A stretch of 64,000 nucleotides of DNA from Sminthopsis crassicaudata (taxonomy: Eukaryota). Where the stretch lies: positions 347,462,454 to 347,526,453 of the forward strand of contig NC_133619.1 of assembly GCF_048593235.1 (NCBI RefSeq). Reading direction: 5' to 3'. A model generated the notes under the pieces. The model did not search any database. It was not told where the DNA came from and saw only the letters and a program-made list of their open reading frames with translations. Below, in pieces: positions 42,645-45,440 of the stretch (its first letter is position 1; the number at the start of each line of letters is the position of its first letter). Position numbers and translations under genes: made by a program.

Positions 42645-45440
42645 GTTTTAATTATTTAATATTATCTTGGTTTATTATTTTGATTATTATTATTTTTAAA
42701 ATTATTAAAAATTTAAATACATAGAACATCCTCCAGATTATTGCACAGATATATGAAATAATTGATTTTCATAGTTGAATGAAAGTGTTAGAAAGTAAGC
42801 TCATGTTTTTAAAGTTCCATGAAAGCTCTTTGATACAAATCCATAATAGATAGAACAACATAGATAACATGTATCTTATCTTGTTCCCATGCAAATTTTA
42901 TCTCCTCTGCTAAGTCTTTATAATTTTCAAAGCTTTTTATTCCATATAGAATTTAGAGTTTATGCATATTAGACATGATGACAGCTATTCAAAATATTGT
43001 GCTTAAGAGGGTTTTTTGGATGTCTTTTATGTAGAGGCTAATGTAGGAAACAATTCAGTCTATGATAACTAACACTAGTACAATTTATTTGTTTATTTAT
43101 CTAGAATATTTTGAGGTCTATATTTATAGGCTACCAATATTTATCATCTATTGGTTCATGAAACACAATAAGCATCTGATAAGTAATTCTGGTCACTATC
43201 TCCTCCTTGCAAGGGATTTGATAGGTGATAGATGTTTACAGCCTATAGCAGAGTGTTTTAAAGTATCTATCTTTTTCTTGAATAACCTACATTAAGCACT
43301 CCCTTTAAGATTAACCTTCTGTAGTTTCTTTTGGCAATGACTTGGTCCTGAGTTGCCATTATAAACTCCTCATTTCCACATACAAAAAACTTTATAACTT
43401 AGCTCTTTCTTCAAGGTTTTTCTGTAGATGTATTCTTGATTGACTTCATGCAGATACTGCTCACTAAGGGCTTTTTGATTCTACTCTTGGATCACAGTCA
43501 TTTTATAGATTTTACCTAGAGTTAATCTACTTCTTACTGTTTGGCATTATATTTTTCTTACAAAATTATTACTTTGGGGGTTAAGAAATGTTTACCATAT
43601 ACTCAGATTTATGGAAGCCATATGGAGATGTCACCAGAAGGGTCCCTCGACTCCCCATGTAGCACAGGAATGACATTGTGGGGCTTGAATAAGGCAAAAT
43701 AGCTATTTTTATCCTTATGTCACTCAGCCCTTATCCAAGGGATAATTGAATTCCTGCCAGTAGGAGAATCAAGAGCTTGGGGCCAGAAAACTGACCTCCC
43801 TGCTCTCTTCAGAGAGAAAAGATACCATTCTAGAATTAAAATTATTTACTTCCTTAAATATTGTTAATCCATTTCAGGTTCAAGCTAAACTTCTGAACAC
43901 TGTTTATTCATGCAAAAAGAAGGACCTAAGCTTTATATTCAAGACTTGATCCCTTTCCCATTAAATACCAGTTCCATGATGAATATACATAGTAAGCAAC
44001 AAAGAAACCCATTTATCTAATTCAACAGCAAAACAGAAATTAGAGAATATATACCAGAGAATACAGACATAAGAATTCTCCCATTAGGAGCAAGAAAATT
44101 CATCTCAACCAAGAGAAAGTCTCAAATTTCACCCAAGAGGAAATTCCCCCAAATCTCTAGTATAGCCAGCAGGGGGTAGGAACATGGTAGAAAGACTGTT
44201 AGCTCATTTCATATTGGCTTCTTCCCAGAGTTTTATTTTTCCCTTCCGCAACCTAAAGTGGGATCTCTCAAACCAGAAAGTCAGAAGAGCCTGAAGCAAT
44301 TATATGACCCAAAAAGATTAGAGAGATCCACAAAGAATGAAAAAGACTGGAGGCATGCAAATGATCTCAATCTTTTTTTAATCTCCACTTCTGCCCTGCT
44401 TCTCATACAGATGAAGACATTGATCTCCAATAACAAGAGCCCCTATCAGTGGGCTTTGGGATTAACTGACCTATATATCCATAAATTTTCTACATCTACC
44501 TTCTTCTGGAGGTCTTTTCCCTGATTTCTTCCCAAGTTTCTGCATTAAAGTTTTGGGTTGATACTGAATTGTTTATTTACTGAATTGTTTATTTAGTTCT
44601 TTTTCCTGCTTTCATTCTTTATGTTACACTTTATTTTTTGCTTTCAATTGCTGATTCAAAGCATCTAGAATCTCTTGTATACTTTGACTCAGTTCTACAT
44701 GTTTCTTTTTTTGTTCTTTTTAATTGAATAATATTGTGTTCCAATTTTTTTCTACTACATGCTATCTAGACATTGATTTAATCTTCCAGTGCCTTTCGTT
44801 AAATCTTCAATACTTCTTTCAAGACACTTCTGTCATTGTGGTGTTTAACGCTTCTCCTTAGGGTCATTTTCTGATATTTCCCACTTTTTTCTGATGTTCT
44901 TATCATGGCAACGGCTTCTGCTATGTGCAGGATCTGAAATAGTTTATAGTTTCTGTCAAATACTGCATGAAAATGTATTCATTCATGATGGTTATAGCTT
45001 TTTTAAAAAATATCTTGGGTCTGCTAGTTGCATTCATGCTGTCAAACTCAAATTGAATTTTGGGGAATTCCAGTTTTAGTATACCCATCTCCTTTATAAA
45101 GATAATCATTATGTTTCTACCATCTGCTTCATTATTAGATATATTTTCTAAAGTTTTAGTTAAGTAGAGATTTTCATAAACCTTGGAATCAGTCTCCAGT
45201 TTTTCCCTCTTCACACTTTAATGGATTCTCAATTTCACCTAATTTAGGCTTAGGAAAGATTTATTTTTATGTATGCTTTGTGCTGATTGTTTGACTTGGA
45301 AATGAGAGCACTATTAACAAAAAGCAGCATGAAGTCCATGTCTATCAATGGTGAACTTTGTTTCTGATTTTGTTACAATATAATATTGACACATAATGAA
45401 AAAACTTATGCCTTCAGTTCATGTCATGTACACTTAACTC
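42645..45440 (-). mobile_element. Fossil Dong/R4-clade non-LTR retrotransposon (restriction-like endonuclease type), heavily mutated, RT core not recognisable
   Basis: Minus-strand translations across frameshifts: M.(W)TEGISFFIMCQYYIVTKSET..DRHGLHAAF (N-terminus); EILDALNQQLKAK / KQFSINPKL (pre-RT); EEFIMATQDQVIAKRNYRRLILK; CRL.KKKIDTLKHSAIGCKHL (CCHC knuckle); YKYRPQNILD...KLY; YKDLAEEIKFAWEQDKIHVIYVVLSIMG and FIQL.KSII..ICAIIWR (RLE C-terminus); then a (TAA)n-like tail. Confidence 0.8.

Follow-up and report, generated by a model that had tools for sequence, protein, structure and literature searches.

The window analysed here, a stretch of 64,000 nucleotides of the genome of Sminthopsis crassicaudata, carries the C-terminal exons of a calsyntenin gene (Pfam CLSTN_C) on the plus strand at 8098-8382, 13654-14001 and 17677-17982, and probably also at about 20443-20754. 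Around 22 kb downstream of the last of these exons, which was read by eye, lies a minus-strand element that is almost certainly a dead copy of a Dong-type non-LTR retrotransposon of the R4 clade, the group with a restriction-like endonuclease (RLE). The full reading, which we hold with good confidence, is that of a dead Dong copy devoid of reverse transcriptase (RT), with an unrelated repeat in the place of the RT, from a family that likely came from an insect. The features of the locus are as follows; reconstruction coordinates refer to a family sequence of about 3.9 kb.

42571..42717, minus strand: 3' UTR, including AAT-rich sequence that has expanded and a conserved terminal block at 42614-42571 (score 83 vs. 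a shuffle maximum of 68)
42718..43532, minus strand: C-terminal part of the Dong ORF with the post-RT linker, CCHC knuckle and RLE (reconstruction nt 2895-3714; 71%, 469 bits, K2P 0.33)
43238..43291, minus strand: zinc knuckle, second Cys changed to Phe (family pattern C-X2-C-X8-H-X4-C)
43533..43628, minus strand: unassigned spacer, possibly decayed Dong (best reconstruction match nt 2768-2819, collinear; score 31 vs. a shuffle median of 34)
43629..44448, minus strand: unrelated high-copy repeat of about 0.8 kb, LTR-like, in the place of the RT (ends approximate; TG..CA ends, TATA-like and AATAAA signals)
44472..45588, minus strand: N-terminal third of the Dong ORF together with the 5' leader (69% identity, 578 bits, K2P 0.29; reconstruction nt 179-1374)
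45601..45660, minus strand: additional Dong 5' remnant (reconstruction nt 76-131; local score 48, highest of 100 shuffles 38)
45656..45721, minus strand: terminal scrap, about 61-66 nt, of a young repeat (88-92% to loci L046, L052, L055, L059 and L060)
45717..45941, minus strand: (TAG/TAA)n microsatellite on the 5' side of the element, resuming at 46370-46481

The copy in the window and the history of its locus

An earlier note had described this element as a near-full-length fossil with RT, CCHC knuckle and RLE in series. The copy turned out to retain about 55% of the family sequence (ORF coverage 0.55). Its domain order is kept, and the RT is missing: RT coverage is 0, and reconstruction nt 1375-2894, the whole RT of 1.5 kb, is absent, so that there is no YxDD. 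Within the 2.8-kb span, about 0.94 kb does not belong to Dong, most of it being the inserted high-copy repeat, and a shuffle-controlled local alignment of the spacers flanking this repeat revealed no significant match to the family. What remains of the element is well supported. The reconstruction was built without the window, and the best of 20 shuffles reached 35.4 bits vs. 578 and 469 bits for the two main blocks; furthermore, the weevil protein P0013 aligns directly to the 42718..43532 part with an E-value of 1e-4. Stops and frameshifts break the reading of the 44472..45588 block, in which 24 of the 28 alignment gaps are not multiples of three, and the catalytic residues of the RLE have decayed. 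A Pfam search of the six frames of the region gave no family, and a homolog search from one window frame gave no hit among 107 candidates, as expected because the sequence has decayed. As a fossil without RT from an already known class, the copy is unremarkable, and most likely it does nothing today.

The minus-strand motifs reported earlier were all recovered: FIMCQYY at 45400-45380, LNQQLKAK at 44659-44636, FSINPKL at 44568-44548, FIMATQDQVIAKRNYRR at 43365-43315, YKYRPQNIL at 43128-43102, YKDLAEEIK at 42922-42896 and IQL/KSII at 42780-42757. The knuckle with its Cys-to-Phe change is likewise present at 43291-43238; its spacing had been misjudged, being C-X2-F-X8-H-X4-C with X8 rather than X7. 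Both proposed ends of the element had to be moved. The M-x-W block, taken for the N-terminus of the ORF, is preceded by about 85 residues in the weevil relative, and the copy reaches approximately position 45660. The supposed TAA-rich tail at 42645-42715 is AT-rich sequence internal to the 3' UTR; the true 3' end lies at 42571, where the terminal block (reconstruction nt 3749-3792) is 84% identical over 44 nt with an E-value of 5e-6. The first 200 nt or so of the element are absent from the copy; by-eye comparison shows that in the ortholog of organism C family-like sequence continues past the 45601..45660 remnant.

The inserted repeat (about 43650-44460) has 1263 candidate places in the genome, the 40 scored being 67-79% identical, and blocks of about 600-860 nt are common to 14 loci. 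Judging from its sequence, it is likely a solo LTR. TG and CA sit at its approximate ends, and no clear target duplication of 4-6 bp was found around it. Support for an LTR-mediated loss of the RT was looked for at the window locus, which shows no target duplication and one such repeat only. A loss driven by LTRs is conceivable.

Both junctions of the inserted repeat are bridged by contigs of organism B, and the 5' junction also by contigs of organism C, with 5.0-5.5% substitutions. Therefore, the RT loss and the inserted repeat predate the split of organisms A (that of the window), B and C, and the age of the element itself would be roughly tenfold that of the split. Neither the ortholog in B nor that in C contains the young scrap at 45656-45721, likely an LTR end; their contigs leave the window at 45632 and 45654, respectively. 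The order of events, which is partly shown, would begin with insertion some 22 kb downstream of the calsyntenin gene, continue with the loss of the RT and the arrival of the LTR-like repeat, both before the split, and end, in organism A alone, with the young LTR scrap and the loss of the 5' end. The (TAG/TAA)n tract at 45717..45941 is likely an expanded target tract, a role suggested by the family flanks.

Other features were noted in the neighbourhood. The microsatellite is split by about 430 nt (45942-46369) with TG..CA ends and an AATAAA-like signal, resembling another solo LTR. On the plus strand, 48970-49321 and 49883-50224 contain remains of another LINE, RT-like and downstream coding pieces that have decayed; by their motifs they look L1-like. 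Two stretches, about 60977-61551 and 62348-62921, have near-identical translations at a spacing of 1,370 nt, suggestive of a local tandem duplication.

Reconstruction, age and target of the family

Eighty loci of 8.5-10 kb each were fetched, 40 by a match to the RT and 20 by each end, and the reconstruction was made as their majority sequence with BLAST and MAFFT refinement. Locus L118 served as the seed, a first seed, L077, having been dropped for its nested SINE and two deletions. The reconstructed ORF, which runs across two frame joins and contains 16 stops, comprises at least 1,132 aa. When 64 CpG sites that had decayed were corrected on the evidence of the copies alone, six stops disappeared, leaving 10, and the RLE motif RPDI was restored. 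The single ORF encodes an N-terminal domain, an RT with YMDD, the knuckle C-X2-C-X8-H-X4-C and an RLE with RPDI..LIDVAIP..EKLSKY (PD..D..K, CpG-corrected). A common 5' start lies about 90-135 nt ahead of the reconstruction, hence the element length of about 3.9 kb. The RT is present in other loci of the family: RVT_1 was detected in 2 of 22 in-frame pieces, and in L032 RT motifs lie between the two element ends. The proposal that the window copy might extend the consensus is not supported, as 31 of the 80 loci are more complete. An ORF coverage of 80% or more is seen in 17 of the 80, and 12 combine both element ends with no less than 80% of the RT; the 80 loci were chosen by similarity and then scored against the reference they built, and the counts are not genome-wide rates.

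Two observations concern single loci. The SINE nested within the Dong copy of L077 measures 245 nt and has 26 full copies in the 80 loci with a median K2P of 0.22; presumably it is MAR1-like. The matches in L008 and L013, which lie on C3 at a distance of 2.1 Mb, are near-identical, which suggests a segmental duplication.

The rarity claimed for such elements is not supported. The genome offers 96 candidate places for the 3' part of the element and 124 for its 5' part, of which 40 each were scored with identities mostly of 64-77%, and 96-195 per Dong segment overall; nine of the 42 rows listed for the 5' part are a different young repeat. In the marsupial Antechinus, Table 2 of PMC9631953 gives 12,719 Dong-R4 fragments amounting to 4.9 Mb, or 0.15%, and for human Table 1 of PMC3428314 gives 550 fragments amounting to 120 kb. 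The family copies form one age class, uniformly old. Measured against the reconstruction, the window copy has a K2P of 0.30, and the median is also 0.30 (0.22-0.37) in the 76 of the 80 loci with at least 500 nt. No young subfamily was seen and no copy fell below 0.22 among these 76 loci, which speaks against a recently active marsupial lineage. Among the 39 best-scored protein matches in the genome (22-45% identical) none is intact and all have stops, the search being strict and the count a floor.

The expected preference for TAA was seen at both ends of the family, which thus shows the insertion into TAA microsatellites that is a known habit of Dong (PMC3812793). After 37 3' ends, AAT/ATA/TAA make up 7.0-7.6% of the triplets vs. 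1.6-3.4% 300 nt further on. Before 11 5' starts, the share of TAA triplets is 0.23 vs. 0.089, a value reached in 1 of 10,000 resamples; these starts were located in 11 of 26 loci with a motif chosen by eye from the same loci, two of the 11 look misplaced, and the other 15 loci gave none. A flank-free version of the 5' pattern gave two hits genome-wide, L169 and L170, and no control hit. Both follow AAT runs; L169 continues into the family with 67% identity over 534 nt, and L170 has a 97-nt match further on only. The start in L169 is GCTCCCCTCAAAGTCCAACC. The primer for Bombyx Dong, as given in PMC3774820, reads (TAA)n followed by GCTCCCTAAAATCCTACC, which the family start resembles. L169:1490-2170 is a copy with retained CpGs and an unusually clear 5' end of this Bombyx-like kind. 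Bombyx Dong carries a 5' HDV-like ribozyme according to the same source. An Rfam search over eight loci, whose copies are CpG-decayed, gave 29 weak matches, none to a ribozyme family.

By analogy with R2/R4 biology, the protein of the element would bind its own RNA, the RLE would nick TAA repeats, and insertion would proceed by target-primed reverse transcription; at times a new copy would enter the TAA tract that follows an older copy, which would build stacks. Three of the 11 5' starts directly follow the 3' end of another copy, head to tail. Such stacks were noted in L110, L119 and L134, and several 3' ends also occur in L118 and L159.

Clade assignment and protein relatives

On sequence grounds the family is of the Dong/R4 clade and not an APE-type LINE, as the earlier note had proposed from motifs. 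The reconstruction scores 861-1098 bits to single-ORF RT-CCHC-RLE proteins vs. at most 114 bits to APE-type LINE proteins, and the latter match in the RT region only, with 22-28% identity; the family has a C-terminal RLE in place of an APE before the RT. These weak, RT-only matches and the RLE after the RT speak against L1, L2, RTE and CR1. An RT profile searched against the PDB gave four hits in all, three of which are R2 proteins with E-values of 2e-12 to 1e-10.

A profile from the 22 in-frame genomic pieces retrieved 244 proteins at E-values of 1e-30 or lower, the best being from the weevil Sitophilus oryzae. These relatives are unannotated ORFs, which we label Dong from their domain order. 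The reconstruction is 50% identical to P0175, the best overall match, whose source organism is not stated, 47.6% to the weevil protein P0163 and 30% to P0004, which we take to be Rex6-like from its N-terminal motifs. After CpG correction these values are 53, 50 and 31%, and in the RT core 60, 60 and 38%, respectively. Two other Dong-like ORFs, P0002 and P0003, have an N-terminal PF02338 domain (presumably an OTU-like protease) before the usual ORF.

The RT of the family is 58-60% identical to that of the weevil, above all 80 between-order pairs of 15 named insect proteins, which reach at most 53.9% (median 46.8). Three trees were built, from 194/226 cores (FastTree, 70% redundancy filter), from 41 hand-picked rows and from 22 rows with a mixture model; none contains a named vertebrate R4/Rex6 protein. 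In all three, the same clade of 4-5 rows holds the family and the weevil protein with support of 98-99, and the named rows of the enclosing clade are all insects. A grouping of 28 insect-type rows without the family was rejected with p-AU 0.001 under LG+G4, the group having been named after the tree was seen. All 29 organism-named rows among 120 are insects, in a search seeded with the weevil protein that favours its kin.

Several known systems are close to the family. Dong of Bombyx mori, DongAg and DongBg share with it the TAA microsatellite target (PMC3812793) and a single ORF with RT, CCHC and RLE. In contrast to them, the family is extinct, mammalian and about 30% decayed, and the window copy lacks the RT; the likeness lies in target, domain order and 5' start. 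The Dong-like proteins of Sitophilus oryzae, XP_030754471.1 (P0163) and XP_030765588.1 (P0013), are 47-50% identical over about 1,100 aa and 58-60% in the RT core, with the same motifs; their ORFs are open and in a beetle, whereas the family is decayed and in a mammal, and the comparison is one of proteins. Rex6 and the anole R4 belong to the R4 clade and have the domain order of the family. The presumed Rex6-like P0004, with 30-31% identity overall and 38% in the RT core, falls in a clade separate from the family. BovB/RTE is likewise a non-LTR element of patchy occurrence in vertebrates that was likely transferred (PMC4350176 mentions a transfer of BovB), but is APE-type, whereas the family is RLE-type, site-preferring and long extinct. 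The RepeatMasker class LINE/Dong-R4 (Mam_R4; Repbase X4_LINE) is of the same clade, and the family, compared with it at clade level, is likely identical with Mam_R4. For human, Mam_R4 is described as the sole known relic of an RLE-type LINE (PMC9004415; the supplement lists neither Dong nor Mam_R4). X4_LINE is listed as R4 in Repbase (PMC5753468).

Origin of the family and its meaning

The affinities described above suggest that an early mammal probably acquired the family from an insect. A more specific joint scenario, which we put forward tentatively and at slightly below even chances, is that the mammalian Dong-R4 fossils derive from a TAA-targeting Dong of beetle-associated insects that entered a Mesozoic mammal, made one burst and then died, that the full-length copies left in marsupial genomes suffice for rebuilding the entire 3.9-kb element, and that this transfer is so far undescribed. 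The open-access literature searched does not discuss where the Mam_R4 relic came from and states no insect origin for it. A rival with a smaller yet real chance accepts the same dead copy and has the family inherited vertically from chordates, with the insect affinity reflecting a slow, old Dong sublineage and the lack of named vertebrate proteins in the databases. It is consistent with the lack of an organism name in 91 of the 120 relative rows and in 27 of the 30 clusters looked up, with a chordate-labelled Atlas cluster at 0.99 (a feature similarity involving no alignment), and with the occurrence of Rex6/Dong in most fish and in the anole (PMC4350176). It also fits one pre-amniote Dong-R4 fossil in human (PMC9004415), Dong in a snail (PMC3812793) and the frequent incongruence of R2 host and element trees (PMC3774820).

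Two further readings concern the copy itself. That the remnant was exapted as a calsyntenin regulatory element is very unlikely: its position downstream of the calsyntenin exons and the frequent constraint on human Dong-R4 fragments (PMC3428314, in its Table 1) would fit, but the orthologs differ by 5.0-5.5% substitutions with indels in every part, and the remnant is as far from the family (0.30) as the median copy. We give marginally less credence still to the reading that the copy is nearly complete, useful for extending the consensus and part of a lineage that is rare and perhaps active in marsupials. The copy does hold pieces of both ends, and Dong-R4 fragments are counted at 12,719 in Antechinus vs. 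550 in human in the tables cited above (PMC9631953, PMC3428314); however, its RT is absent, 31 of the 80 loci are more complete, none of 76 copies lies below K2P 0.22, and the 39 best protein matches all have stops.

The window copy matters little, since the same genome holds better copies and dasyurid annotation already includes the class. The family matters more than the copy. RLE-type LINEs are nearly absent from mammals, and the likely insect origin of the family is the one result worth following. If this origin is true, the family would represent an old, datable non-LTR transfer across phyla of a kind that screens for recent transfer would likely miss, and a TAA-targeting RLE element would once have functioned in the mammalian germ line.
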